A stretch of 64,000 nucleotides of DNA. It comes from Alphaproteobacteria bacterium (GTDB lineage: Bacteria > Pseudomonadota > Alphaproteobacteria > Rickettsiales > UBA3002). Made by a program: the position numbers and the translations under genes. Position 1 is the first letter of the stretch, and the number at the start of each line of letters is the position of its first letter. The DNA is taken from NCBI GenBank assembly GCA_031402515.1, contig JANNSK010000008.1, positions 9,717 through 73,716 of the forward strand, in the 5' to 3' direction. Positions 3,999 to 64,000 of the stretch are shown piece by piece. The notes under the pieces were generated by a model that saw only the letters and a list, made by a program, of their open reading frames with translations, had not been told where the DNA came from and made no database searches.

Positions 3999-5249
3999 AT
4001 GGCCGGAGCAGACGTCAAGGAATTCACCATATTTGGACTAAAAATGTGGCAGCAGGTGCTGATCGGCCTGGCACTCGGCATCGTTACCGGCTTCGTGCTC
4101 GGCCCCGATGCGGCATCGCTAAAAATTTTCGGCACGATCTTCATCAACCTGGTTAAAATGGTCGTGGTGCCGCTGATTTTCCTGGCGCTGGTTTCCGGCA
4201 TTACCAGCATGGGCGAAGGCGCCAACTTCAAACGCGTCGGCCTGAAAGGTGTGTTCGCCTATCTCTCGACCGCTTTATTTGCCGTGATTATCGGCCTTGC
4301 CACGGGCTATGTCCTCAAACCCGGCGAAGGGCTCAACGTCAATATCGCCGATTATACCAACGACGCGCCCGCCTCCAATGCGCCGCTGATGAAACTGTCG
4401 GACTTCCTGCTCGACCTCATCCCCACCAACATCTTCGGTTCGTTTGCTTCGGCCAACCTTCTGCAGATTATCGTCTTCGCCGTGCTGTTTGGCATGACCA
4501 TGAACTCCATGGGCAAAAAAGCGGCGCGGCCCAAAGAGATTATCCATGACTTTGCCCAGATCGTTTTCAAGCTGATTGAATATATCGTGCGGCTGGCACC
4601 ACTCGCTGTGTTCGGCTTCATGGCTTGGTCGGTTGGTACGCAGGGCATGGAGATCGTAAAAATCCTAATCAAGCTGGTGGGAGCTGTCCTGCTTGCCTGC
4701 ATGTTCCAGTATGCGCTGTTCGGCATCATGATCGCCGTCTTCGCTCGCCTCAACCCGTTCGTCTTTTACCGCAAGCTTGTCACCACACAGCTGATGGCAT
4801 TTTCCACATCCTCGTCGAAGGCAACGCTGACTACCGCCATGCGCGAATGCCATTCCAAGCTTGGTGTCTCCGAGCAGTCCACGCAGTTCCTGCTGCCACT
4901 GGGTGCTGCAATCAATATGGACGGCACGGCAATTTATCTTGGCATCTGCGCACTGTTTTTCTCGCAGCTATTCGGCCATCCACTGCAAATGGCCGATTAT
5001 GCCGTGCTGCTACTGGCCTGTACGTTAGGCTCCATCGGTGCGGCGGGGATTCCATCCGGCTCGATCATCTTCATGGGCATGGTGCTCAATTCGGTCGGTC
5101 TGCCGATTGAAGGTATCGGCCTCTTGCTCGGTGTTGACCGTGCGCTCGACATGGTGCGCACCACCATCAACATCACCGGCGATTGCACCATCACCACGAT
5201 TATTGATGCGACCGAAAAGACGCTGGATAAGAAAGTGTATTATAGTTAG
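3999..5249 (+). CDS. Dicarboxylate/amino acid:cation symporter (DAACS, GltP/DctA-like)
   Basis: 416 aa polytopic protein with SSSKATLTTAM and INMDGTAIY-type motifs characteristic of the family. The start may be the internal MWQQ. Confidence 0.85.
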   Translation: MAGADVKEFTIFGLKMWQQVLIGLALGIVTGFVLGPDAASLKIFGTIFINLVKMVVVPLIFLALVSGITSMGEGANFKRVGLKGVFAYLSTALFAVIIGLATGYVLKPGEGLNVNIADYTNDAPASNAPLMKLSDFLLDLIPTNIFGSFASANLLQIIVFAVLFGMTMNSMGKKAARPKEIIHDFAQIVFKLIEYIVRLAPLAVFGFMAWSVGTQGMEIVKILIKLVGAVLLACMFQYALFGIMIAVFARLNPFVFYRKLVTTQLMAFSTSSSKATLTTAMRECHSKLGVSEQSTQFLLPLGAAINMDGTAIYLGICALFFSQLFGHPLQMADYAVLLLACTLGSIGAAGIPSGSIIFMGMVLNSVGLPIEGIGLLLGVDRALDMVRTTINITGDCTITTIIDATEKTLDKKVYYS

Positions 5250-5255
5250 GCCATC

Positions 5256-6260
5256 ATGGACCGCCCTTTGTGGATGTGGATTATCTTTTTCGCCGTCGTC
5301 GCCCTGCTACTGGTCTTTGATCTCGGCGTACTGCACCGTAAATACAAACCCATCGAGGTGAAAGAAGCGCTGTTGCGCAGCGCGTTTTATCTGGCGCTAG
5401 CCATGGGCTTCAACGTATTCGTGTTCCTCAATCTCGGCCGCCAGCCGGGTTACGAATTCTTCATGGGCTACCTGATCGAGCAATCGTTGAGCCTCGACAA
5501 CCTGTTCGTGTTCATGCTCATCTTCACCCATTTCGGCGTGCCGCGCCAATACCAGCATCGCGTGCTGCTCTGGGGCATCCTGGGCGCGGTGATACTGCGC
5601 GGCATTATGATCTGGCTCGGCTCCACCCTCATTCAGGAATTTACCTGGGTGACGTACGTCTTCGGCGCATTCCTCGTCATCACCGGCATCAAGCTACTCT
5701 TCGCGGCAGACGCGGAGCCCGATGTCACCAACAACCGCATCATCCGTTATATGCGTAAGAATTTTTCCATCACCAAAGACTACGAGGGCGAGAAATTTTT
5801 TGTTGTACGCAACGGCAAGCGGATGATGACGCCACTATTCCTCGTGCTGATACTCATCGAAGTCTCCGACCTTGTCTTCGCGGTGGATTCAATACCGGCG
5901 ATTTTTGCCGTCACTTCCGACCCGTTTATTGTCTACACCTCGAATATCTTCGCCATCCTCGGCCTGCGTTCGCTGTATTTCGCGCTGGCTGCTTTCCTCT
6001 ACCGCTTCGAGTACCTAAAATACGGATTGTCGGCAATCCTGACGCTGATCGGCCTAAAAATGCTGGTGAACCATTATTTCAGCTCGCCGATTATCCCCAC
6101 CGAGATTTCGTTGATTGTTACGGTGACCATCCTTATTTTCTCCGCCGTGCTGTCGCTGGTCAAAACCCGCCGCTCACCCCGTAAAGTAGTGACGACCGGT
6201 TGGGTGCCGGGATCAACGCCCAAGAAGAAGAAAAAGAAAAAAGAACCCAAACCGGAGTAA
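5256..6260 (+). CDS. TerC family integral membrane protein
   Basis: 334 aa with repeated LSLDNLFVF / SDLVFAVDSIPAIFAV motifs typical of TerC/Alx. Carries a Lys-rich C-terminal tail. Confidence 0.85.
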   Translation: MDRPLWMWIIFFAVVALLLVFDLGVLHRKYKPIEVKEALLRSAFYLALAMGFNVFVFLNLGRQPGYEFFMGYLIEQSLSLDNLFVFMLIFTHFGVPRQYQHRVLLWGILGAVILRGIMIWLGSTLIQEFTWVTYVFGAFLVITGIKLLFAADAEPDVTNNRIIRYMRKNFSITKDYEGEKFFVVRNGKRMMTPLFLVLILIEVSDLVFAVDSIPAIFAVTSDPFIVYTSNIFAILGLRSLYFALAAFLYRFEYLKYGLSAILTLIGLKMLVNHYFSSPIIPTEISLIVTVTILIFSAVLSLVKTRRSPRKVVTTGWVPGSTPKKKKKKKEPKPE

Positions 6261-6263
6261 CTG

Positions 6264-7187
6264 ATGCGTTTTCCTTTCCAGCTTTTCCGCAACGTGCCGA
6301 AGTTCGATTTTGTCGGCTACCGCAAGGTCGGATTTTTGATTACCGGCCTCGGTGTGATTGTCTCGATTGCCTCGATTGCCATCCATGGATTCAATTTTGG
6401 CATCGACTTCACCGGCGGCGTGGTCATGGAAGTGCGCACCGAACAAGTGGCCGACGTGGGCAAAATGCGCAGCCTGCTCGATACGGCGGGCACGCAGAAT
6501 GCCAGCCTGCAATCGGTCGGTGATGGCACGCAAGTGCTGATTCGCATAAAACCCGAGGGGACCGAGAATCAGAACCAAGTTGCCCAAGGCGTGCGCGGCG
6601 CGCTCGATACCGGTTACGGTAGTAAAGTGGACTACCTCAAGGTCGATTATGTCGGCCCGCAGGTGGGCTCGGAACTCATCCGTGGCAGTATCATTGCACT
6701 CGCGCTCGCCATGGGCGCCATCATGCTTTACCTGTGGTTTCGCTTCGAATGGCAGTATGGCGTAGGCGGCGTGCTGGCACTCATCCACGATGCCATACTC
6801 ACCCTCGGTTTTTATTCTATTAGCCAAATCGAGTTCAACCTGACCTCGGTCGCAGCACTTCTCACCATCATCGGCTATTCGATTAACGACTCGGTGGTCA
6901 TCTTCGACCGTATCCGCGAAAACCTCCGTAAATATAAAATCCGGCCGCTGGGGGAAGTACTCAATCTTTCCGTCAACGAAACACTGGCGCGCACGTTCCT
7001 CACGGCAGGCACGGTGCTCGCCGCACTCATCGGTCTTGTCGGATTCGGTGGCGAGGTGTTGTTCGGCTTCTCGACGGCGATGATTTTTGGACTCCTAGTC
7101 GGCACCTATTCGTCCATCTATGTCTCGGCGACGGTGCTTATCTACATGAACCTGCGTAACGAGGATGCAGCTGATGCGACAGCATAA
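6264..7187 (+). CDS. secF: Protein translocase subunit SecF
   Basis: 307 aa with the SecF pattern FDFVGYRK...GIDFTGG...YSINDSVVIFDRIRE. No secD is adjacent. Confidence 0.9.
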   Translation: MRFPFQLFRNVPKFDFVGYRKVGFLITGLGVIVSIASIAIHGFNFGIDFTGGVVMEVRTEQVADVGKMRSLLDTAGTQNASLQSVGDGTQVLIRIKPEGTENQNQVAQGVRGALDTGYGSKVDYLKVDYVGPQVGSELIRGSIIALALAMGAIMLYLWFRFEWQYGVGGVLALIHDAILTLGFYSISQIEFNLTSVAALLTIIGYSINDSVVIFDRIRENLRKYKIRPLGEVLNLSVNETLARTFLTAGTVLAALIGLVGFGGEVLFGFSTAMIFGLLVGTYSSIYVSATVLIYMNLRNEDAADATA

Positions 7188-7956
7188 GAACGCACTCCTT
7201 CATTTCGGCTGGCTAGCAGCAGCGCTGCTGACCATCGCCGCCGGGCCGCTATCCAATCCAAATGCGCCCTATCCTTACGCACCGCAGTTTGTTTTGCCGG
7301 AGGATGTACCACCGACCGTGCTGAAAGAGCCGCCGCGCCCCGGCTCGAAGGAATATAAAAAGGAACTGGAGCTGGTTGTCACCAACCAGAAATCGATGAC
7401 AAAAGAGAAAGCCGACATCGTCATGGGTGAAAGCGAGGTATGGCCGGAGATGATTACCCTACCCGCGCTCGGCGATGATTTCACCGAGGAGGAGTATCCG
7501 GCAACTTATCAGTTATTGAAACACGCCGGGTCCGACAGTTGGCGCATTAGCGACGAAACCCGCTACTATTGGAAATCCGTGCGACCATGGTTGGCCGACA
7601 AACGCGTGAAGCTCTATGTAAAGCCGATTGAAACGCCCAGCTATCCCAGCGGCCATACAGTCACCAACCATGTCTGGGCGAGTATTTTAAGCGACCTGAT
7701 GCCGGAACACCGCCAGAAGCTATTCCGACGTGCCGACGAAATCGCCAATCACCGGATCGATGGCGGTGTGCATTATATGTTCGATATCAAGGCCGGCCAT
7801 TTTATGGGCGATAAACTGTATCAGCAGATGCTGGGTTCCCTCGCCTTTCGGCGCGAATTCCGCGCGGCTTGCATCGAGATTCGCGGCAAGGAACATCATC
7901 TGCCAACCGTCAGCACACGCCGCTGTTTACCCAGCTTGGCGGCTGCTCCCCGTTGA
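7165..7956 (+). CDS. PAP2-superfamily (class A acid phosphatase-like) periplasmic phosphatase
   Basis: Signal-like N-terminus. PAP2 motifs are KSVRPW, PSGHT and NHRIDGGVHYMFD. Confidence 0.75.
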   Translation: MQLMRQHKNALLHFGWLAAALLTIAAGPLSNPNAPYPYAPQFVLPEDVPPTVLKEPPRPGSKEYKKELELVVTNQKSMTKEKADIVMGESEVWPEMITLPALGDDFTEEEYPATYQLLKHAGSDSWRISDETRYYWKSVRPWLADKRVKLYVKPIETPSYPSGHTVTNHVWASILSDLMPEHRQKLFRRADEIANHRIDGGVHYMFDIKAGHFMGDKLYQQMLGSLAFRREFRAACIEIRGKEHHLPTVSTRRCLPSLAAAPR

Positions 7957-9294
7957 GGATTCAGTCAGCTTGGTCTCATAAGATTGTAGATTGGCAATGA
8001 CTCTTGTCAGCTGCTCCAGCGGCCCGCAGAAAGTAACACGCGCGTGCCAGTCATCTTTGCCTGCGGGTGAACCTGGCGCGTAGAACGGAACACCAGGTAC
8101 AGGACAAACGCCCACCACATTCACCAGATAGCGCATCATGTCGGCAGGCGTGGTAATGGTGTAGGCTTCGCTGGATTCGGAAATACCCGCAGGCACCTGC
8201 TTACCTTTGAGTCCTACAAAATTTACCCAGCCATAAATCGTGCCGCGCGGATCTTCCATGTGTGCGGTTTTCATTTTAGCGACGCCTTCGGTAAGCATCT
8301 TGCCCTTTTCTTTGAGCAGATCGACAGCACTGACAATGAATCCATCACCATAGAGCAATGCTGCTTCAGCAAGTATCTGGTTTTCAACTCCCATACCGCC
8401 GCCTTTGTTTTCATTCCAGAGCTGTAAGCTGCGTAGCATGTCTTTATGTTTGGTGGCGACGAAGCCGACGCGCTCGCCTGCCAGACCGTACTCCTTGGAC
8501 ACGGTACGGAACACTGCCACACGCCCTTCAGCAAAGAGTTTTTTCTCGACGGGCCCGCGCTGCAATACGGCAGCGATGTCGTACGGCTCACGATCGAACA
8601 CGAGCTTGCCGTACGGGTCGTCGCTGGCAACAATGGTGTCTTTGGTTGTTGAGGTAATGGCAGCAAAAAACGCCTCGCGTTCTTCCGGTGTGTAGTTAGA
8701 GCCGGTGGGGTTCGAGGGCGCGTTAATGAGTACCATTTTTGGATTGGGATAGACTTTAAGCACCGCTGCCAAATCGGTAGCACGCAGGATACCGTCTTTT
8801 GTCGGAATCTCAACCAGTGTGACGCCGGGTGGAAACATATCGAAATTGCTCGGCCAACCGGGTACAGCCATCAGCACCACCTCGCCTGCCTTTACCGTAT
8901 TGAAAAACACGCCATTCAGCGCACCTTTGCCACCGACGCCAATCATGACTTCATCTTTGGTGACAGCGCATCCAGTATCGCGCGAGAAGGTGTGGGCAGC
9001 GGCAGCACGTAAGCTCGGCAAGCCAGTCGTTTCCGAATAGGCATAGATTTTCTCGCCCGTACGCAAGGTTGCATACATTTCCTGCTTAGCGTTTTCTGGG
9101 TTCGCGGCGTCTTGTTTCAAGCGATTCAGCCAGCGTGCCGTTTCATCCTGCGATGGTTTTGGAAACAAATCGCCGATGGTAACAAGATCAACCTTCTTAC
9201 CGCGCGCTTCGGCGTCTTTGGCCATACTGGCGGCGCTCATCGTCGGCGACGGGCGCATCTCGGTTTTACTGGTAATGGTGAAATATCCGGTCAT
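7927..9294 (-). CDS. PLP-dependent aminotransferase, class I/II
   Basis: 455 aa with NAPSNPTG and TVSKEYGLAGERVGF (PLP lysine) motifs. The start is uncertain because of a long N-terminal extension. Confidence 0.8.
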   Translation of the reverse strand: MTGYFTITSKTEMRPSPTMSAASMAKDAEARGKKVDLVTIGDLFPKPSQDETARWLNRLKQDAANPENAKQEMYATLRTGEKIYAYSETTGLPSLRAAAAHTFSRDTGCAVTKDEVMIGVGGKGALNGVFFNTVKAGEVVLMAVPGWPSNFDMFPPGVTLVEIPTKDGILRATDLAAVLKVYPNPKMVLINAPSNPTGSNYTPEEREAFFAAITSTTKDTIVASDDPYGKLVFDREPYDIAAVLQRGPVEKKLFAEGRVAVFRTVSKEYGLAGERVGFVATKHKDMLRSLQLWNENKGGGMGVENQILAEAALLYGDGFIVSAVDLLKEKGKMLTEGVAKMKTAHMEDPRGTIYGWVNFVGLKGKQVPAGISESSEAYTITTPADMMRYLVNVVGVCPVPGVPFYAPGSPAGKDDWHARVTFCGPLEQLTRVIANLQSYETKLTESSTGSSRQAG

Positions 9295-9352
9295 GGCTGG
9301 CTCCTCGCTTTTACGTAATAGCAGGCCCGCCCAAACTCAAGCGCTTTCCGCG

Positions 9353-9772
9353 TTACCTGCGCGACACAACCCACGCATCCGCTGACCATTTGCCCGCGCC
9401 CTGTGTGAGCAGAACGGCAAGCAGCATCGCCCAATAAACGTGCTGGATATTCTGGTCGTAGGTGAACTGGATGACCGCCGTCATGGCGATAAGTGGTAAC
9501 GTGGCAAGCCGTGCCGCAAGCCCCAATACCAGCAATGCTGGGCAGACAAGCTCAAAGAGCGTGGCACTATAAGCCGCAAAGATCGGCGGGACAAATGGCA
9601 CCTGATACTCGTCACGAAACAGGGCAATCGTATTCGCCATATCGCTGATTTTTACCATGCCAGAGAGGAAAAACACCCGCGCCATCCAGAGCCGGACGAT
9701 AAGCAGCAGGGCTGGAGAAAGCTGTGGCGCAATGGTAAGGAAGCGATTGTATAGTTTCATGATTGCTGGCAT
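9353..9772 (-). CDS. doxX: DoxX family membrane protein
   Basis: 139 aa, four TM segments, DoxX-like LLIVRLWMARVFFLSGMVK motif. Preceded by a SigF-type promoter. Confidence 0.8.
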   Translation of the reverse strand: MPAIMKLYNRFLTIAPQLSPALLLIVRLWMARVFFLSGMVKISDMANTIALFRDEYQVPFVPPIFAAYSATLFELVCPALLVLGLAARLATLPLIAMTAVIQFTYDQNIQHVYWAMLLAVLLTQGAGKWSADAWVVSRR

Positions 9773-9806
9773 AAATCCTCATTCGATTGAGTTTCGTATC
9801 CCTTCA

Positions 9807-9832
9807 TTCGAAGGTCAAGCGCGAATGGTTAC
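9807..9832 (-). promoter_or_regulatory. ECF (SigF/ECF16-type) promoter GTAACC-N16-CGAA driving doxX
   Basis: The reverse strand reads TGTAACCATTCG cgcttgacctt CGAAT. The spacer is exactly 16 nt. The site is about 35 nt upstream of the doxX ATG. Confidence 0.75.
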
Positions 9833-10376
9833 ATCGGCATCCGCAACGTCCCCGAACCTCACCGCGCTGATGCAGCTCACGCTGGATGGCGATAAGACTG
9901 CCTATCAGGAGTTCCTCACTCAGGTATCGCGTTACCTGCGCCGTTTCATCGCCCGCAGCATCCCTGCTTCGGATGTGGAGGATGTACTACAGGAAGTGCT
10001 TATTTCCATCCATAAAGCACGACATACCTATGATGGCAAACGCGCGGTGCTACCGTGGGTATCGGCCATCGCCCGCTACCGGATAAGCGATTACCTGCGC
10101 CAGCATTATGCCGCGATGCGGCAATCACAGGTTGATTTGGCCGATGTCGAGGATTTTATCGCCGCCCCTGTAACCGAAACCAGCGAAACCGGCGAATCTA
10201 TCCTTGAGGAAGTGGGACAATTGCCGGAACGCCAACAGAAGATTCTGTATTTGCTACATACCGAAGGCTACACCGCTAAGGAGGTGGGGGCCAAACTCGG
10301 CATGCGGGAATCAGCAGTGAAGGTAGCGGCCCACCGAGCCTATAAGGTAATTCGGGCAAGATTGAGTAGTTCATGA
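9825..10376 (+). CDS. sigF: ECF sigma factor (sigma-70 family, SigF-like)
   Basis: Region 2 and region 4 motifs (DVEDVLQEVLISIHK, ILYLLHTEGYTAKEVGAKLGMRESAVKVAAHRA). Its stop overlaps the anti-sigma start (ATGA). The start is taken at an internal ATG because the longer ORF overlaps doxX. Confidence 0.85.
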   Translation: MVTSASATSPNLTALMQLTLDGDKTAYQEFLTQVSRYLRRFIARSIPASDVEDVLQEVLISIHKARHTYDGKRAVLPWVSAIARYRISDYLRQHYAAMRQSQVDLADVEDFIAAPVTETSETGESILEEVGQLPERQQKILYLLHTEGYTAKEVGAKLGMRESAVKVAAHRAYKVIRARLSSS

Positions 10377-11008
10377 GTGATACACAACAGTTAATTGTCG
10401 CGCTTTCGGCGGACGCCAGACCAGTCATGCCGATGATGGTGCCCAGTCGCCTCGCGCTGCGCCTATCCGCCCTGCTCGCTGCCTACGCGCTCGTGATGGC
10501 ACTGATGCTAGGCCTGCGCGAAGACATTGGAACATACTGGCATCAACCAGTGTATCTTACTGAATTGCTTGCACTGTTTGCACTGGCAGCGGCGAGTATT
10601 ACCGCCTCGGTATTCCGCGCATTTCCGGACCAGTATCAGTACGACACGGTGCGCCACCTACCGGCCGTGGCGTTTGCCGTGTTTTTCGCCTTACTCGCAT
10701 TCCAGTTCTGGCTACCAGGTACACCATCGCCCGTCAACGCCCATGGGATGGAATGCGCGATTTGCATTGGAGCGGTTGCGATTATTCCATCGGCCATCGC
10801 CATGTATCTCATCCGGAAAGGCGCCAGCACGAAGCCACTTCTATCGGGCATGTATGCGGTGCTGGCTTGCGCCGCTATCGGCTGCCTTGTGCTGCGGCTC
10901 ATCGAAGCCAATGATGGCCCCACCCACCTCCTGCTATGGCACTATTTTCCGACACTGGGTTTTGCCGCCCTCGGAGGTATCGCCGGGAAATTCTTACTAA
11001 AATGGTAG
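10373..11008 (+). CDS. nrsF: DUF1109 / NrsF-type membrane anti-sigma factor
   Basis: 211 aa, six predicted TM segments, translationally coupled to the ECF sigma. This is the architecture of Caulobacter NrsF. Confidence 0.75.
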   Translation: MSDTQQLIVALSADARPVMPMMVPSRLALRLSALLAAYALVMALMLGLREDIGTYWHQPVYLTELLALFALAAASITASVFRAFPDQYQYDTVRHLPAVAFAVFFALLAFQFWLPGTPSPVNAHGMECAICIGAVAIIPSAIAMYLIRKGASTKPLLSGMYAVLACAAIGCLVLRLIEANDGPTHLLLWHYFPTLGFAALGGIAGKFLLKW

Positions 11009-11009
11009 T

Positions 11010-11035
11010 GTAACCATTCGACTTGAACTCTCGAA
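11010..11035 (+). promoter_or_regulatory. ECF (SigF/ECF16-type) promoter GTAACC-N16-CGAA driving the DUF2282-MNIO-DUF2063 operon
   Basis: TGTAACCATTCG acttgaactct CGAAT with an exact 16-nt spacer. It shares a 12-nt identical -35 block with the doxX promoter. Confidence 0.8.
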
Positions 11036-11108
11036 TAGACAGGCGTAAGCGTTGCTTGCCCGGGACTATTCCGGTTTCAAACCACTCCAATTTTTGAAAG
11101 GTATTGTT

Positions 11109-11384
11109 ATGAAAAAGCTTCTTCTCACTGCTGCTCTTGCTGGCATCACTGCGGCTACATTCTCGGTTGCTCAAGCCGCCGACGACGCTGCTGCCGCCAA
11201 GGAAAAATGCTACGGCATCGCCAAAGCTGGTAAAAACGATTGCAAATCGGCCGATGGTGCGAATTCCTGTGCAGGCCACTCCAGCAAAGACAACGACCCG
11301 AACGTCTGGAAATTCGTTGCCAAGGGTGAGTGCGAAAAAATGGGCGGCATGTCCGATGCACCAAAAACACCGAAGTCGATGTAA
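11109..11384 (+). CDS. bufA: DUF2282 secreted Cys-containing peptide (bufferin BufA1-type RiPP precursor)
   Basis: Sec signal [23 protein letters not shown]. The core has four Cys ([25 protein letters not shown]...KGECEKMGG). It sits directly upstream of the MNIO gene. Confidence 0.8.
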
Positions 11385-12281
11385 TTGCCTTTTGTTTGTT
11401 TAGGAAAAGGGCTCCCGGTAACCTACCGGGGGCCCTTTGACTCTCGAGTGACATTTACCTCACAGCTTGGATTCGGCCTTGGCCTGCGCGCACCGCATTA
11501 CACGGAAGTGCTACGCGAAAAACCAACACTCGGCTGGTTTGAGATTATTTCCGAGAATTATATGGAAGCCCATCGCGGCTATCTCGACTATCTAGCCGAC
11601 CTCCGCGCACACTATCCTATCGTCATGCATGGCGTATCACTCTCCATCGGCTCCACCGACCCGCTCGACGACGACTATCTAAAAAAACTCAAAGCACTGG
11701 CTGAACATATCGAAGCGCCGTGGATTTCTGACCATCTGTGCTACACGGGCGTCGGCGGCAAAAACACGCACGACCTGTTGCCCCTGCCCTATACGGAAGA
11801 AGCGCTGGAACATATCATACCGCGCATCCAAAAATTACAAGACACGCTGGGCCGCGCCTTCGTGTTCGAGAATGCCTCGACCTATCTCGAGTTTGACGGC
11901 TCGACTATCAGCGAACCAGAATTCTTTGGCGAACTCTGTGCGCGCACCGGCTGTGGCATCCTGCTCGATGTCAACAACGTCTATGTTTCAAGTTTCAATC
12001 ACGGCTGGGATGCGAAGGCGTACATCGACGCGATTCCCACAGCATCCATCGCGCAATACCATCTTGCCGGACACACCAATAAAGGCAGCCACCTCATCGA
12101 CACTCACAACAACCATGTGATCGACGCGGTGTGGGATCTCTATCGTTACACACTGCAAACCAAGGGCATGAAAAGCACCATGATTGAGTGGGACGATGCT
12201 ATCCCAGAATTTTCTGCATTGATGGCGGAACTCGACAAGGCGCGCGCCGTGGCCGATGCGGTGGAAAGGAAAGCTGCATGA
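11385..12281 (+). CDS. bufB: MNIO family enzyme (DUF692/UPF0276; BufB/MbnB-like)
   Basis: TIM-barrel-like DUF692 pattern (GFGLGLRAPHY...WFEIISENYM...HGVSLSIGS...SDHLC...FENASTY...LLDVNNVYVS...HLAGH). The ORF opens right after the bufA stop. The true start is unresolved (TTG at 11385 or a downstream GTG). Confidence 0.85.
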   Translation: MPFVCLGKGLPVTYRGPFDSRVTFTSQLGFGLGLRAPHYTEVLREKPTLGWFEIISENYMEAHRGYLDYLADLRAHYPIVMHGVSLSIGSTDPLDDDYLKKLKALAEHIEAPWISDHLCYTGVGGKNTHDLLPLPYTEEALEHIIPRIQKLQDTLGRAFVFENASTYLEFDGSTISEPEFFGELCARTGCGILLDVNNVYVSSFNHGWDAKAYIDAIPTASIAQYHLAGHTNKGSHLIDTHNNHVIDAVWDLYRYTLQTKGMKSTMIEWDDAIPEFSALMAELDKARAVADAVERKAA

Positions 12282-13027
12282 GCTACGCTTCACAGCTCGC
12301 ATTATTAAACGAGGCAATCGTTGAAGAGTGTTATGGCGCGATGCTGCCTACTATCAAGCACACGCGAACGCATGAGATTTCTGCTGAAACACGGCTGGGA
12401 GTTTACGTGAATGGCTACATGGAGCGGTTACTCAAAGCGGTGCTAGCTGATTACCCGGCGCTCACGCATTACCTTGGCACAGCGCGCATGAACGATATAG
12501 TACGAGCCCATGTGCAGAAAAATCCGTCGCTCCATTGGGATCTCAACCGTTACCCGATCAGTTTCTCCGCATGCTTCACGAATACATCGGAAGACCGCGC
12601 AGCAATTGCGGTAGCGCAACTCGAAAGCACCATCGCTGACGTTTTCTGGATGCCAGAGAGTGCGCCACTGAACGCAGAAACATTGGCCACATTGTCCATG
12701 GAGCAACTTTCCGCAACACATTTCAAGCCGCGCGTAGCGCTACGACTTTTGAAGCTTGATTGCGCTGCCAATGCGTTCTTACAAGCGTTTCGTGATGGGG
12801 AACCGCCGACGGCCATCGCGGCTGAAGAGGAATATCTTTGCGTGGTACGCCATGAAAACGATGTGCGACGTATCGTGCTAGAACCAACCGAATACACGCT
12901 GCTTCACGTGATGTTCAGTGGCGTGCGTTTTGACAGGGCGCTTGATAGCATTAATGATCCCGCACTCACTGAAAAACTACCTCGCTATCTCGCGCGTTGG
13001 CTAAAGCATGGTCTCTTTGTCGCCTAA
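12278..13027 (+). CDS. bufC: DUF2063 protein (MNIO partner, BufC-like)
   Basis: Its ATG overlaps the bufB stop (ATGA). About 250 aa. Position and size match the DUF2063 partner of DUF692 enzymes. Confidence 0.7.
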   Translation: MSYASQLALLNEAIVEECYGAMLPTIKHTRTHEISAETRLGVYVNGYMERLLKAVLADYPALTHYLGTARMNDIVRAHVQKNPSLHWDLNRYPISFSACFTNTSEDRAAIAVAQLESTIADVFWMPESAPLNAETLATLSMEQLSATHFKPRVALRLLKLDCAANAFLQAFRDGEPPTAIAAEEEYLCVVRHENDVRRIVLEPTEYTLLHVMFSGVRFDRALDSINDPALTEKLPRYLARWLKHGLFVA

Positions 13028-13188
13028 TATTTCCTTTTCCATTTTGGAAAAACCGAGCAACTCAGAACTGGGGGCCTCAAGACACGGGCTGCAGCAGCAA
13101 AACACCATCAAGGCACAACCGGACCACTAAGCCAAAAACACACTGTGTTTACTAATAAATACCCGACAGTAAAGTTTATTGATATTGG

Positions 13189-15261
13189 CTAGCCTACGGC
13201 AAGCCGCTCGGCGGCAGCGCCTTCCTTCAACCACTCGCGGCCACCTTGATTGTCGAGATAATGCATCAACGCGCTAACCACCCTGCGATCAAAATGCTTG
13301 CCGGTATCGGCATGCAGAATCTCGATCACCTCATCCCACGCCATCGCCGGACGATAGGATCGCGGTGAAACCATACCTACCAGCGCGTTGGCAACCGCAA
13401 TAATACGCGCCGAGATAAGCACGTCCTGCCCGTTCATGTTCAGCGGGCCGGAGCCGTCCATACGCTCTTGTGCCTGGCACAGTGTCTCGGCCACCGGACC
13501 ATGGAAAGCGATATTTCTTAGTAAATCGGCTGTCGCGGCGAGCGAACTCCTGATAGTCGCTCGCTCGGCATCGTTGAGCACGCCGTCACGGGTAAGCAGG
13601 CCCGCCGGAATATCAGCCTTGCCGAGATTCATCAACTGCGCGGCGGTGGCGGTCGTCTCCACGGTGACACTGTCGAGACCCATAATGCGCGCAGTGGCAG
13701 CTGCAACTTCAGCCACCTGCGCTGAATGGCGGGCGGCATGCGGATCGCGCTTGTCGACCAGCGAGACCAGCATGGACACAAGCTTTTTCAGCGTATCAAC
13801 GCGCAGTTCGCGCTCCTCGATCATCTCGGTCACGTCCTGCTCAGCAATGAGTACGCCGCGCGTGGGCATCCTTACCCCCTCGACTGGAATGCGGGAAAGC
13901 GGTACAAAACGCGCATGGATGGTGCGCAGACCGCGCTCGTCGCTACGCTCGATCAGCCGCGTTTCGTTACGATCATATTCTAGCGCAAGTTGGCATGGTT
14001 CGTTCACCGCCTGTGCGAAGGCTTTACCCATTGCGTTGGCGATCGACTTGCCGCGTGGCTCCTTATCGCCGAGCAACATCAATTCCGCCGCGCGATGATT
14101 GGCGAACCACAGGCCGAGATATTCATCAACGATATAGAGCGGCTCGGGTTGGTTGTCGGTAACGGCCGATAATAGCTCAGCGCGCGCTCCCCACTCTTCA
14201 GCAAGTGCCGACTGCGCACGCGCCACCGCGTTCCGCCAGATGGCGACCACCGTTGCGGTTAAGGCAGCCAGCAGCAGTAGGATGGCAATCGCCACCGTAT
14301 TACGCCATACGGTTGTTTGCGCCAACGCCTCGGCTCGGTCGATTTTGGCGATTAGTACCCATGGCGTGCCAGCGACTGCGCGCGCGGTGAAGAATACCGG
14401 TTGGCCACGATAGTCGATCTTTTCAGCGAATTCGCCGGTATGCGCTAGCGCATGGACCGCAGCAGAACTCTCACTCAACGGCTCGGCATGACTCATCAAC
14501 GGCGACTGATCGAGCAGTGGCGTAAGGTAACGGACATTCTTTCCCTCCGCACGCACCAGCATTACTTCAAGCGTCTGTTCAGGCGTCGGTTGCGGCGCGA
14601 GTAGCGCGAAGAAGCCGCCATCGAGCAAGCGGACACCAACCAGTCTGCCGGTTTGCGCGGCAGGTGAACGGTCCTGCTGTACGCCATAAATCGGAATCAC
14701 GAAGCCCAGTCGCTGGGCACCGCTATCTTCCTGCGTGATGTCAAGCAGCGAGCTTTCACCACGTGGCGCCAGCGTCAGTTTCTCGGTCAAGCCCCCGGCC
14801 AGTGGTGGCATATAGTCCGTCGCCATGACGAGTTTGCCACTGTTATCGATCAGTGCCAGACCGCCACTACCGAGTTTGCGCACATTGGCGCCGATCTGCT
14901 GCTGGAGTGTCGGTGTCGATGGCTCAAAACCCAAGCGTTGCGACGTCATGGTCATCAAGCTGCGCAGATATTCTGCCTGCGCGAGTGGTTCGCCATCGGC
15001 TTGCGCCTGAAGCTGGGTGAAATAAATCTGCAGCGAGGCGTTGTCAGCGAGGCTGGATAGCTCGCGGAACTGGTTTTGTACCCACCCACTAACACCGCGC
15101 GCCTGCGTATCGGCGATGAGGTTGAGTTTATCGCGCCACTGCGCCGTATCGCGCGCGCGTTCATGCTGCAGGAACAAAGCAAGGCTGGCAATACCCGCCG
15201 CGCCAATAAGGAGAATAATGGAACCGATTCCCAAGCGAGACCGAGAAAGCCGAGCGCGCAT
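13189..15261 (-). CDS. Membrane sensor: TM - large periplasmic (Cache-like) domain - TM - PAS-like - degenerate HD-GYP domain
   Basis: 690 aa with TMs at about aa 10-30 and 321-342. The C-terminal domain aligns to HD-GYP but reads DPHAARHS / LMNLGK / AQERMDGSGP instead of D.YT..HS / LHDIGK / HHE..DGSGYP. Confidence 0.8.
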   Translation of the reverse strand: MRARLSRSRLGIGSIILLIGAAGIASLALFLQHERARDTAQWRDKLNLIADTQARGVSGWVQNQFRELSSLADNASLQIYFTQLQAQADGEPLAQAEYLRSLMTMTSQRLGFEPSTPTLQQQIGANVRKLGSGGLALIDNSGKLVMATDYMPPLAGGLTEKLTLAPRGESSLLDITQEDSGAQRLGFVIPIYGVQQDRSPAAQTGRLVGVRLLDGGFFALLAPQPTPEQTLEVMLVRAEGKNVRYLTPLLDQSPLMSHAEPLSESSAAVHALAHTGEFAEKIDYRGQPVFFTARAVAGTPWVLIAKIDRAEALAQTTVWRNTVAIAILLLLAALTATVVAIWRNAVARAQSALAEEWGARAELLSAVTDNQPEPLYIVDEYLGLWFANHRAAELMLLGDKEPRGKSIANAMGKAFAQAVNEPCQLALEYDRNETRLIERSDERGLRTIHARFVPLSRIPVEGVRMPTRGVLIAEQDVTEMIEERELRVDTLKKLVSMLVSLVDKRDPHAARHSAQVAEVAAATARIMGLDSVTVETTATAAQLMNLGKADIPAGLLTRDGVLNDAERATIRSSLAATADLLRNIAFHGPVAETLCQAQERMDGSGPLNMNGQDVLISARIIAVANALVGMVSPRSYRPAMAWDEVIEILHADTGKHFDRRVVSALMHYLDNQGGREWLKEGAAAERLAVG

Positions 15262-15333: not shown

Positions 15334-16014
15334 CTACCTATACGCCCACCATGATCGGCTATTGATGGCGTAGATGGGACGGTAGTGATAGATATTTGCC
15401 TCGTTGGTAACAGAACTTGCCTGATTATCGAGCAGGTAGCGCTCGCCACCCGACTTCACCTCGAGAACCGCATGCATAATACCACCTAAGTTATTGTCCT
15501 GTACAATGATGATGCGCATCGAGGACTCGGGTACGCCCAAGCGCTTGAGCGAAATGAACTTGGCAATAGCGTAATCCTCGCAGTCACCGCCGCGGCTCAT
15601 GAACTCGTATGGCGTCTGCCAGTAATCCTCAACACCAAGATTATCTTTGTCCTCGACATATTTGATATCGTTGAAGAAATCATTGACCGCATCGAGCTTC
15701 GCCTCCAGTGAATTGCCGCTCTGTTCGCTGAGCATTCTTTCCCAGCGGCGCGCATCGCAATCATCATCTTTACACTGCTTATCGGCTTCGGCTTTTTCTC
15801 GATTGTAACGCGGCATCAACGAGGTCCATTTGGTGAAGGCGGAAAGGTCACCCGAGCTGGTCTGTTGTGAGGAGAGCAAGGGGTTCGAGATTGCATGCGC
15901 CATGCCCGGAAGCATCAGGAAAACGGCGAAGAGCAGTATGCTTGCCGCCATCATCCGTTTCGGGAAGAGGGTCTGACATGTGGTAATCCGGGTTTTATGT
16001 AAGCAATCCACCAT
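15334..16014 (-). CDS. Periplasmic transglutaminase-like cysteine peptidase (BTLCP, LapG family)
   Basis: Signal peptide MMAASILLFAVFLMLPGMAHA (likely start about 15954). Catalytic Cys/His/Asp context is GGDCEDYAIAKF ... IMHAVLEV ... LLDNQ. Confidence 0.85.
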   Translation of the reverse strand: MVDCLHKTRITTCQTLFPKRMMAASILLFAVFLMLPGMAHAISNPLLSSQQTSSGDLSAFTKWTSLMPRYNREKAEADKQCKDDDCDARRWERMLSEQSGNSLEAKLDAVNDFFNDIKYVEDKDNLGVEDYWQTPYEFMSRGGDCEDYAIAKFISLKRLGVPESSMRIIIVQDNNLGGIMHAVLEVKSGGERYLLDNQASSVTNEANIYHYRPIYAINSRSWWAYR

Positions 16015-44560: not shown

Positions 44561-45121
44561 CTAACGGCTTTCTCGCTTGGTTCCTTCAATTTTGGGAGGG
44601 CAAAGCGCCTCAAAGCTGCCTTCCCAGTTCTTACGCGCAGCATCCTCGCAACTCAACCAATCGGCCCTTCGTCCAAGTTCTTTATCCAAGCGGGCGAAGA
44701 ATAGATTGAACGCTGCGGGGCTAAATATCTTTGCCTCGCCAGTGGAACTTGGGAGCGTATAAACGCTAGTTCCCGCGATGGCACCTGTTGCGCCACCAGT
44801 TTGGATACTGCTTAGGTCTAGGTATATCTTTGTTCCCTTGCCCGTTTTTTCGGTGTCAACTTTCCACTGGGTTACGCCTTCGTGAAACGCAAGCAGAAGA
44901 AAGAGCGTCCACGGCTTGGTGGCAACCAGACCGCGCGGTTGATGTGAAATGGTGTATTCGTTGTCGGACTTCCTTAACACTTCTTCTGCCGCGCGAATCA
45001 GCCTTTCCTGAGACAAGCCATAAGTACGACTGGCAACTAAAAGGTACTCCTCTCTCGTGACCTGTCGATTTTCGGCGCAGGCGGCAACGAGAAGGGTTAA
45101 CGCAAGAACGAATGACTTCAT
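44561..45121 (-). CDS. Hypothetical lipoprotein (island cargo)
   Basis: Lipobox LLVAAC at the N-terminus. 186 aa. No family recognised. Confidence 0.6.
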   Translation of the reverse strand: MKSFVLALTLLVAACAENRQVTREEYLLVASRTYGLSQERLIRAAEEVLRKSDNEYTISHQPRGLVATKPWTLFLLLAFHEGVTQWKVDTEKTGKGTKIYLDLSSIQTGGATGAIAGTSVYTLPSSTGEAKIFSPAAFNLFFARLDKELGRRADWLSCEDAARKNWEGSFEALCPPKIEGTKRESR

Positions 45122-62947: not shown

Positions 62948-64000
62948 ATCCCTCGCTCTCGCCCTTATACTCACCTGCGCCACACAGAGTGTCGCGGCTG
63001 AATCTATTGTCAAAAGCCAACTCACCATGAATGCCGAGAAGGTGAAAGCAGGCGAGCCTATCTGGGCGGCGATTACGCTCGCCATGCCGAAAGACTGGCA
63101 TGTGTACTGGAAGAATCCTGGTGACTCCGGCATCGCTACTTCTTTTGAGTGGAAGTTGCCCGAAGGCGTCACCGCAGGCGAAACACTCTGGCCCAAGCCG
63201 CGCCGTGTGGCCACCGGCACCATCATCAACTACGGCTATGCCGACCGCGCCATTTTCCTGACACCGCTTACCCCTGATCGCGACAACATCACCGGCGAGA
63301 TGTCGGTGAAGGTCAGTTGGCTGGCCTGTAAGGATACCTGTATTCCTGAATCGGCAACGTTCCGCGCCTACCTGCCGCAGAAGGATGTAACCGCGGCAAA
63401 AGTTGTGAACGAAGCGCGCAGGTATTTGACAAAACCGTTGTCCGGTGCTGCAACCTATCGCGTCGAAGATAAAAAAATTGTGCTTGAGATTGCCTCCTTC
63501 GAGCCATTCAGTGCCTTGTCGCAATTCATTCCGCTTGAGAACGGTATTATCGCCAACGACGGCGCACAGGAAGTGACGCGCACGAGCGGCAAACTCACCA
63601 TCGCCATGCCGCGCGGCAATACGTCACCCATCAAAGAATGGCACGGCATACTACGTAGCGCTGATAACGGATTTGAAGTCACCGCCACGGCACAAAACAT
63701 GGCACCGACGGCAACGGAACAATCGCCGACGGCTTCTTCCTCCTCGCTCATTGTCATTCTGCTGCTGGCACTCGCTGGCGGATTGCTGCTGAACCTGATG
63801 CCGTGCGTGTTGCCGATTCTGTCGCTCAAGGCGCTGGCGCTGGCGAAAAAAGGCGGTGGCTCCAACGCCGAAGCTAAACGTCAGGGCATTGCTTATACCG
63901 CAGGCGTTGTCGGCGGATTTATACTCATCGCGCTGGTATTGCTCTCACTGAAATCGGCGGGTGAGGCGGCGGGTTGGGGATTCCAGTTACAGAGTCCGGG
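62934..64000 (+). CDS. DsbD/ScsB-like thiol:disulfide interchange protein (N-terminal part; continues beyond the window)
   Basis: Not in the ORF track (no stop in the window). My translation gives MRIIKSLALALILTCATQSVAAESIV...WHVYWKNPGDSG... and later LLNLMPCVLPILSLKALA, the DsbD TM Cys motif, in the same frame. Confidence 0.8.
   Translation, partial: MRIIKSLALALILTCATQSVAAESIVKSQLTMNAEKVKAGEPIWAAITLAMPKDWHVYWKNPGDSGIATSFEWKLPEGVTAGETLWPKPRRVATGTIINYGYADRAIFLTPLTPDRDNITGEMSVKVSWLACKDTCIPESATFRAYLPQKDVTAAKVVNEARRYLTKPLSGAATYRVEDKKIVLEIASFEPFSALSQFIPLENGIIANDGAQEVTRTSGKLTIAMPRGNTSPIKEWHGILRSADNGFEVTATAQNMAPTATEQSPTASSSSLIVILLLALAGGLLLNLMPCVLPILSLKALALAKKGGGSNAEAKRQGIAYTAGVVGGFILIALVLLSLKSAGEAAGWGFQLQSP

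Follow-up and report, generated by a model that had tools for sequence, protein, structure and literature searches.

A Buf1-type bufferin locus with an ECF16-like sigma/anti-sigma pair and a putative promoter inside the sigma gene in an uncultured alphaproteobacterium

We describe herein a six-gene locus at positions 9353-13027 of a 64,000-nucleotide stretch of DNA from an uncultured alphaproteobacterium (contig JANNSK010000008.1; the whole stretch is called the window below). The locus runs from the stop codon of doxX to that of bufC, and comprises a divergent doxX gene followed by genes for an extracytoplasmic function (ECF) sigma factor, an NrsF-type anti-sigma factor, a precursor peptide (bufA), its presumed maturase (bufB) and a partner protein (bufC). 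With a probability of about 0.88, it is a Buf1-type bufferin cluster run by its own ECF16-like sigma/anti-sigma pair. The bufferin cluster itself is already known in kind, and the only feature for which we found no report is that the promoter sequence proper to the sigma factor recurs, conserved, within the sigma gene, where it probably serves to transcribe the anti-sigma gene.

Bufferins were described in 2024 (PMC11626156), and a 2025 survey of MNIO clusters found sigma and NrsF genes in Buf1, but not Buf2, clusters, with Sigma70_r2/r4_2 and NrsF as known members (PMC12452194). An earlier inspection of the letters of this DNA (the sequence-only reading) had implied that the arrangement is rare. 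This does not hold, since the association of sigma and NrsF genes with Buf1 clusters had been reported in that survey, and the same six genes lie adjacent to one another in cultured Burkholderiaceae. As a bufferin locus, it is one more example in a family of thousands with curated NCBI models, and changes little. The sequence-only reading had also counted six components and both promoters within 3.7 kb. All are present, and together they make a compact and complete set of two promoters, regulator, precursor, maturase, partner and DoxX, small enough for whole synthesis.

Gene content of the cluster and its relatives

The gene content was derived from a list of open reading frames (ORFs), the sequence itself, and Pfam and NCBIfam hidden Markov model (HMM) scans. 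The assignments to DoxX, ECF sigma, DUF1109, DUF2282, DUF692 and DUF2063 made in the sequence-only reading were all supported by the HMMs, and the genes lie where it had placed them (Table 1). A metagenome contig of identical sequence (Logan SRR20217205, L001) carries independent gene calls with exactly the same starts and Pfam labels. Every test runnable in silico that could have told against the bufferin interpretation was run, and none did.

Related loci were collected by searching genomes with BufB and metagenomes with an alignment of the sigma factor, which together gave 160 loci (numbered with the prefix L). The nearest relatives, with BufB identities of 66-72%, are metagenome-assembled genomes labelled Rickettsiales or Alphaproteobacteria, and the SecF of the window points to the same taxonomic placement. 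Three loci (L003, L005 and L083) have the identical layout, that is, doxX on the minus strand followed by sigma, nrsF, bufA, bufB and bufC, with flanking genes that differ. Such constancy of the six genes in differing neighbourhoods suggests that they move as a module. The flanking SecF, PAP2, aminotransferase, HD-GYP and LapG-like genes, the last two considered also as a pair, show no synteny with the bufferin module in related loci, and thus do not appear to be part of it.

The precursor, BufA, scored 80.8 bits against PF10048 (cut-off 22.4), and the precomputed Pfam label of its copy on the identical contig is PF10048:BufA1. As the sequence-only reading had described, the peptide carries a Sec-type signal and four Cys residues. 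The signal peptide, read from the sequence, spans residues 1-23, with a basic KK n-region, hydrophobic residues at 4-22 and cleavage between AQA and ADD. The Cys residues lie at positions 34, 45, 54 and 75 (codons at 11208, 11241, 11268 and 11331), and all four are invariant among 40 aligned homologues. In the mature peptide of 68 residues, they occupy core positions 11, 22, 31 and 52. The core of Caulobacter Buf1 also has 68 residues, with Cys at 12, 23, 31 and 52; its outer Cys pair is unmodified and predicted by a model to form a disulfide, its inner pair is converted to copper-binding 5-thiooxazoles, and its Ser30-Cys31-Ala32 and Trp44 recur in the BufA of the window (PMC11626156). A database search returned 1617 homologues of BufA, several of which are named by NCBI "BufA1 family periplasmic bufferin-type metallophore"; those bearing this name are 59-62% identical to the BufA of the window. 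A sequence search with BufA against PDB gave no meaningful match.

Precursors of other kinds occur in some of the related loci. Both L003 (6553..6948) and L007 (~6628..6945) encode a DUF2282 precursor with C-terminal (K/E)NGCEGK repeats, which resemble the EGKCG/oxazolin motif; the BufA of the window has no such tail. Moreover, L005 encodes a further small precursor (4700..4910), characterised by KNSCK repeats and preceded by its own GTAACC-N16-CGAA promoter (4622..4647).

The maturase, BufB, scored 361.6 bits against the MNIO_BufB equivalog model NF050167 (cut-off 310) and 243.6 bits against the HvfB model (cut-off 360). Its relatives in PDB are 3bww, TglH (8hci) and MbnB. Nine residues (H61, H96, E141, D174, N177, H205, D218, H220 and E247) are invariant among 89 sequences; in order and spacing, they fit what we take to be the MNIO iron ligands in structures of MbnB.

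A sequence search with BufC against PDB gave no meaningful match, and its structure was therefore approached through a confident AlphaFold2 model (predicted local distance difference test 85.6, predicted template modelling score 0.80), built from an alignment of five sequences, as a word-indexed homologue search gave only 5 proteins. The model has a C-terminal module of three beta strands and helices, as in a domain resembling the RiPP recognition element (RiPP, a peptide made by ribosomes and modified after translation). In a Foldseek search, TglI was the best match (8hi7_A, E=3e-6; also 8hci_A), followed by NGO1945 (3dee, E=6e-5), with a probability of 1.00 each. NGO1945 is a crystal structure of a DUF2063 protein, and TglI is the partner of the MNIO enzyme TglH in the TglHI holoenzyme. 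Since its model best matches these two proteins, BufC is predicted to be an MNIO partner protein, not the DNA-binding regulator of older annotation.

That older annotation, if right throughout, would leave no RiPP at all: the DUF2282 protein would be small, rich in Cys and unmodified, residing in the membrane or periplasm, the DUF2063 protein a DNA-binding regulator, and the DUF692 protein a TIM-barrel enzyme acting on a small molecule. Pfam does call PF10048 a "predicted integral membrane protein" and PF09836 a "putative DNA-binding domain", and RefSeq names BufC homologues "DNA-binding domain-containing protein". We nevertheless consider it highly improbable, because the N-terminal signal is the sole hydrophobic stretch in a hydropathy profile of BufA, BufB exceeds the BufB equivalog cut-off, the BufC model aligns with TglI of the TglHI holoenzyme, and modification of BufA by BufB and BufC has been shown for Caulobacter, both genetically and by reconstitution in vitro.

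The divergent position of doxX beside the sigma gene was correctly given in the sequence-only reading. Its product is 45-49% identical to the DoxX proteins encoded in fourth position of bufABCD operons (L097, L122, L143 and L159), and the gene is counted as a core member of the cluster; it is divergent, but has the same sigma-type promoter as bufABC.

The start of bufC overlaps the stop of bufB in an ATGA (12278-12281), as expected from the coupling that had been proposed for these two genes. The DUF692 gene had also been placed directly after the DUF2282 gene; the order stands, but a 63-nucleotide spacer with a 15-bp hairpin intervenes. (The gap between nrsF and bufA is 100 nucleotides.) The hairpin has a minimum free energy of -31.6 kcal/mol (z=-3.6). 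A hairpin of differing sequence was found at the same place, upstream of bufB and past the last of the precursor genes, in 6/6 close relatives (L003, at ~6963-6985, and L004-L007 among them), and is followed by a T-run in L003 and L007. In these loci, bufB begins 5-10 nucleotides past the hairpin, with no Shine-Dalgarno sequence visible. RiPP operons usually raise the level of precursor over that of enzyme by such a hairpin. The one in the window probably adjusts the ratio of precursor to enzyme, either by terminating transcription in part or by stabilising the mRNA. An Rfam scan of 9000-13400, which includes the bufA leader, revealed no riboswitch or other known RNA at E<=1.

Several characterised systems resemble the cluster. 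In Caulobacter vibrioides, sigF-nrsF lies close to the operon buf1ABCD (CCNA_03363-03366, equal to CC3254-3257) (Leprevost et al. 2024, PMC11626156; Kohler et al. 2012, PMC3511200). The window shares with it a DUF2282 precursor with a Sec signal, a 68-residue core and nearly the same four Cys positions, the same MNIO/DUF2063/DoxX gene set, a GTAACC-N16-CGAA operon promoter with a 5' leader of ~67 nucleotides (61 in Caulobacter), and a DUF1109 anti-sigma gene co-transcribed with that of the ECF sigma factor. Unlike in Caulobacter, doxX of the window stands apart as a divergent transcription unit of one gene, with a promoter to itself, and the sigma and nrsF genes immediately precede bufA in the same orientation. 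Moreover, the sigma gene has no SigF-type promoter in front of it, as Caulobacter sigF does, and NrsF has Glu in place of the second Cys (C181) and falls far under the cut-off of the equivalog HMM.

Plasmids of Burkholderia glumae (L167) and Paraburkholderia fungorum (L165), both in RefSeq, carry genes for sigma, DUF1109, DUF2282, DUF692, DUF2063 and DoxX in a row. As in the window, a SigF-type promoter lies between nrsF and bufA, and none lies upstream of sigma. They differ from the window in that DoxX comes last in the operon, the bufA-bufB spacer is short and without a hairpin, and the sigma factors are 33-37% identical to that of the window. The order DUF2282-DUF692-DUF2063-DoxX is also found in gig of Cupriavidus metallidurans, GIG of Legionella and SMb20527-30 of Sinorhizobium meliloti (RpoE7-EcfR7), which are ECF-controlled or metal-induced; the operon of S. 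meliloti, on pSymB, is divergent from its ECF16 sigma gene rpoE7 and has the same promoter motif. HvfA-HvfB-HvfC-HvfX of Haemophilus influenzae, the oxazolins and the thiooxazole metallophores of Fontimonas are alike in combining an MNIO enzyme, a DUF2063-type partner and DoxX with a signal-bearing, Cys-rich precursor and a copper-binding product. Their precursors belong to another family, with EGKCG repeats, whereas that of the window is of the DUF2282 type.

Table 1. Genes, promoter sequences and hairpin of the cluster, in coordinates of the window
Feature	Coordinates	Strand	Length	Description and support
doxX	9353..9772	-	139 aa	DoxX-family membrane protein, counterpart of bufD, own divergent transcription unit; PF07681, E=8.8e-17
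SigF/ECF16-type doxX promoter	9807..9832	-		GTAACC at 9832-9827, N16, CGAA at 9810-9807; exact match
ECF sigma gene, ECF16-like	9825..10376 (longer ORF 9657..10376)	+	183 aa	Sigma70_r2, Sigma70_r4_2, Sigma70_ECF
Internal promoter-like element	10169..10197 (GTAACC...CGAA core 10170..10196)	+		T-GTAACC-N17-CGAA-T, sigma codons 115-125
nrsF-type (DUF1109) anti-sigma gene	10373..11008	+	211 aa	PF06532, E=1.1e-32
SigF/ECF16-type bufABC promoter	11010..11035	+		GTAACC-N16-CGAA; exact match
bufA	11109..11384	+	91 aa	Buf1-type DUF2282 precursor; PF10048, E=7.2e-23
bufA-bufB hairpin	11406..11438	+	15-bp stem	GC-rich, in the spacer; no U-tract after
bufB	11448..12281	+	277 aa	MNIO/DUF692 maturase, GTG start; PF05114, E=8.6e-107
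bufC	12278..13027	+	249 aa	DUF2063 partner; PF09836, E=3.2e-12

Promoters of the cluster and the element inside the sigma gene

The sigma factor scored 73.9 bits against TIGR02937 (cut-off 42.9) and has sigma2 and sigma4 domains only. Alignments to sigma models begin at about residue 60 of the longer ORF, which fits a start at ATG 9825; the same start was chosen by the gene call on the identical contig.

The consensus of Caulobacter SigF, GTAACC-N16-CGAA, was established by 5' RACE (rapid amplification of cDNA ends) and reporter assays on CC3254-57, the operon orthologous to that of the window (PMC3511200). The sequence-only reading had mentioned two promoters without giving coordinates. Exact matches to this consensus were found before doxX and before bufA, and these are the only two copies with an exact N16 spacer in the window. 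They also have the extension GTAACCATTCG in common. The doxX promoter lies ~35 nucleotides before doxX, and its -35 element overlaps the start codon of the sigma gene (ATGGTTAC); the bufABC promoter begins 2 nucleotides past the stop codon of nrsF and ends 73 nucleotides before the ATG of bufA. If the spacer is allowed to vary (GTAACC-N15-17-CGAA), the window contains 5 matches, against 0.23 expected by chance, and 0/100 shuffles reach 5. One-mismatch matches with N16 are at chance level (6 extra versus ~3 expected).

The positions of these elements recur among the relatives. L003, L005 and L083 have a divergent element in the position that the doxX promoter takes in the window, a SigF-type element follows nrsF also in L005, L006, L083 and others, and no bufA or doxX linked to a related sigma gene is without a SigF-type motif in front of it. 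The predicted regulon in the window would thus consist of doxX and bufABC. Two N17 matches elsewhere were considered and set aside as probable chance occurrences: that at 44849..44875 (-) lies inside an ORF of 186 codons whose product has no Pfam match, and that at 63387..63413 (+) has no listed complete plus-strand ORF of at least 60 codons downstream.

Upstream of the sigma gene itself, neither a SigF-type match nor, in a sigma-70 scan, any other promoter was found on the plus strand before 9825. The related loci behave alike: only 1 of 84 sigma loci has an upstream SigF-type promoter, and in 41 of the 84 a divergent one abuts the start codon.

A further match, with a 17-nucleotide spacer, lies inside the sigma ORF. 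It covers the codons of Val116-Thr117 to Glu124, in the linker between sigma2 and sigma4, ~175 nucleotides upstream of the start of nrsF, and GTAACC-N17-CGAA recurs within the sigma ORF in 81 of the 84 related loci. A codon alignment was made of 81 distinct sigma genes with a median pairwise identity of 72% (range 35-99%), which are phylogenetically non-independent. The patterns used to collect the loci fall elsewhere in the protein, so that the motif was not selected for by sampling. The internal element is fixed at synonymous sites in ~95% of these homologues. For example, Val116 is encoded by GTA in 80/81 genes (background 18% of Val codons), Thr117 by ACC in 77/81 (55% of Thr codons) and Glu124 by GAA in 80/81 (61% of Glu codons). 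The codon before Val116, which encodes eight different amino acids, ends in T in 79/81 (17% at third positions), and that before Glu124 ends in C in 79/81 (31% at third positions); the codon after Glu124 begins with T in 78/81. The adjoining Ser codon is free to vary (TCC 38, TCT 27, TCA 7).

In B. glumae and P. fungorum, the internal element lies at the same Val-Thr codons, with an N16 spacer and the -10 element in another codon register, which speaks for selection at the level of DNA, not of protein. RpoE7 of S. meliloti, one Methylobacterium homologue and one Cupriavidus homologue lack an internal promoter but do have one upstream; in RpoE7 and the Cupriavidus homologue, which is plasmid-borne, this upstream promoter is of the sigma factor's own type, unlike in the window. 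The internal element is most simply read as a sigma-dependent promoter yielding an nrsF transcript. An internal nrsF promoter without an upstream autoregulatory promoter would provide negative feedback without positive autoregulation of sigma.

No description of an intragenic ECF16 promoter was found in the ECF16, SigF, EcfF, RpoE7, BcrS and Azospira literature or by full-text searches, whose coverage is incomplete and amounts to no proof of novelty. We lean slightly towards the view that these sigma genes form a distinct and widespread ECF16-like subgroup, defined by the lack of an upstream autoregulatory promoter, a cognate promoter in the sigma ORF that drives the anti-sigma gene only, and Cys/Glu sensing (see below). 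In such a subgroup, negative feedback would be hard-wired, and the divergent target promoter would overlap the sigma start codon. If the internal promoter is active, it would represent a simple and evolutionarily conserved route to an ECF switch whose only feedback is negative, and would also account for a rise of anti-sigma expression with sigma activity, hitherto taken as autoregulation of the whole operon.

The anti-sigma factor, the inducing signal and a proposed mechanism

NrsF matches PF06532 from end to end (1-204 of 204). The sequence-only reading had described it as a translationally coupled protein with six transmembrane segments. The coupling is borne out by an ATGA (10373-10376) in which the ATG of nrsF overlaps the sigma stop codon; the segment count is borne out in part, as a hydropathy scan revealed five clear segments and a weaker sixth at the C-terminus. 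Two Cys residues are conserved in Caulobacter NrsF (C131/C181) and Bradyrhizobium OsrA (C129/C179), and the second is needed for signal-dependent release of sigma. In the window, Cys128 (10754..10756) is invariant in 64/64 homologues, and the classical position of the second Cys is taken by Glu178 (10904..10906), which is likewise invariant in 64/64 members of the subgroup. The anti-sigma factors of S. meliloti and Methylobacterium keep both residues, with Cys at the second position as well. His residues close to the Cys128 and Glu178 sites are also conserved. A sensing chemistry different from Cys/Cys is thus possible, and the change from Cys to Glu sets apart a subgroup that may respond to another signal than the Caulobacter and Bradyrhizobium models do.

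The sequence-only reading had linked the locus to the SigF-NrsF regulon of Caulobacter. As far as the promoter consensus is concerned, this link is sound. Orthology of the regulators is not supported: NrsF of the window scored 26.7 bits against the NrsF equivalog model NF042994 (cut-off 300), and the second Cys is missing. Judged by its sequence, it is a member of the NrsF family of Pfam and not an ortholog of Caulobacter NrsF. In one related locus (L163, S. meliloti R14 pSymB), the coding sequence of ecfR7, which follows rpoE7, is split over two frames (~5030..5700), and the gene table lists no gene there; either a sequencing error or a pseudogene formed by a frameshift may account for this.

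Of the 41 related sigma loci whose divergent promoter is of SigF type, 22 have an MsrB-like gene in the divergent position, 10 a gene for a Met-rich MXKDX protein, only 4 a DoxX gene and 3 an MsrA gene (family names given by eye from motifs, not by HMM, for loci L084-L161; the MsrB-like proteins carry a twin-arginine translocation signal). Fusion to bufABC occurs only in the clade linked to DoxX, of which the window is a member. The MsrB/MXKDX/MsrA sibling arrangement is similar to the modules by which Azospira and Brucella respond to hypochlorite.

The same genes could accordingly answer to another trigger, namely oxidant or reactive-chlorine stress at the envelope, with the peptide (through its thiooxazoles or thiols) and DoxX as scavengers of oxidants or as protection against sulfur stress. 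The divergent partners of the 41 sibling sigma genes, chiefly Msr and MXKDX, speak for it, as do the response of ECF16-controlled MXKDX and Msr operons to hypochlorite in Azospira and Brucella, the replacement of the signal-sensing second Cys of NrsF by Glu throughout the subgroup, and the suggestion in the 2025 survey that the presence of doxX genes is a sign of protection against stresses of other kinds (PMC12452194). However, the Buf1 and Buf2 systems characterised to date are induced by Cu, not by Fe, Zn or Mn, their products bind Cu with a dissociation constant of ~6e-15 M and improve growth under copper, and the BufA of the window keeps the residues around the copper site. Moreover, Caulobacter SigF also runs msr genes, and its targets are induced by Cr and Cd, but not by H2O2, t-butyl hydroperoxide, paraquat or diamide. 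An oxidant as the trigger is therefore unlikely, though far less so than the older annotation discussed above.

Other observations weigh, together with the Msr and MXKDX neighbours that point to oxidant or hypochlorite rather than copper, against a bufferin cluster run by its own sigma/anti-sigma pair. The chemistry proposed here, modification and metal binding included, is carried over from homologues in Caulobacter, Fontimonas and Haemophilus. The scans gave no promoter for the sigma gene, and none that convinces was seen when 9720-9824 and the aligned relatives were inspected by eye. The spacer of the internal element is 1 nucleotide longer than those of the external promoters of this clade, and its activity is inferred from sequence. 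NrsF is without the second Cys needed for signal release in OsrA and NrsF, so that the inducing signal may differ. Finally, DoxX scored 62.9 bits against the NCBIfam HvfX-family model, under the cut-off of 80.

Taking the locus as a bufferin cluster, we propose the following course of events. In unstressed cells, NrsF in the membrane would keep the sigma factor inactive, by analogy with Caulobacter NrsF and Bradyrhizobium OsrA. An envelope stress, caused by a metal or an oxidant, would act on NrsF and free the sigma factor, and the resulting RNA polymerase holoenzyme would fire the doxX and bufABC promoters, whose sequences are observed and whose activity is predicted. More BufA than BufB and BufC would be produced, owing to the strong hairpin past bufA and to the GTG start of bufB, which has no visible Shine-Dalgarno sequence. 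In the cytoplasm, BufB, a multi-iron oxidase docked to the precursor by BufC, would turn Cys22 and Cys31 of the core into 5-thiooxazoles, as its homology to the Caulobacter Buf1 system suggests. The modified peptide would then be exported by Sec, cleaved after AQA and closed by a disulfide between Cys11 and Cys52, and the 68-residue periplasmic product would bind Cu(I)/Cu(II) and buffer metal stress. DoxX would be a co-induced accessory; in Caulobacter, it is dispensable for modification of the peptide. The promoter inside the sigma ORF would meanwhile yield an nrsF-only transcript, by which the response, judging from the conservation of synonymous sites, would shut itself off without positive autoregulation of sigma.

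Neighbouring genes

An aminotransferase gene of class I/II (7927..9294, minus strand) lies 58 nucleotides 3' of doxX on the same strand. No terminator was detected between the two, and transcription of doxX may read through into it. This adjacency is not conserved, and the two genes are unlinked in L003.

On the other side, directly 3' of bufC and convergent to it, 13189..15261 (minus strand) encodes a 690-residue protein with PAS and HD-GYP-type (HD_5) domains, and 15334..16014 (minus strand) encodes a LapG-like cysteine protease of transglutaminase fold (Peptidase_C93). Together, they look like a module for cyclic di-GMP signalling and adhesin release.

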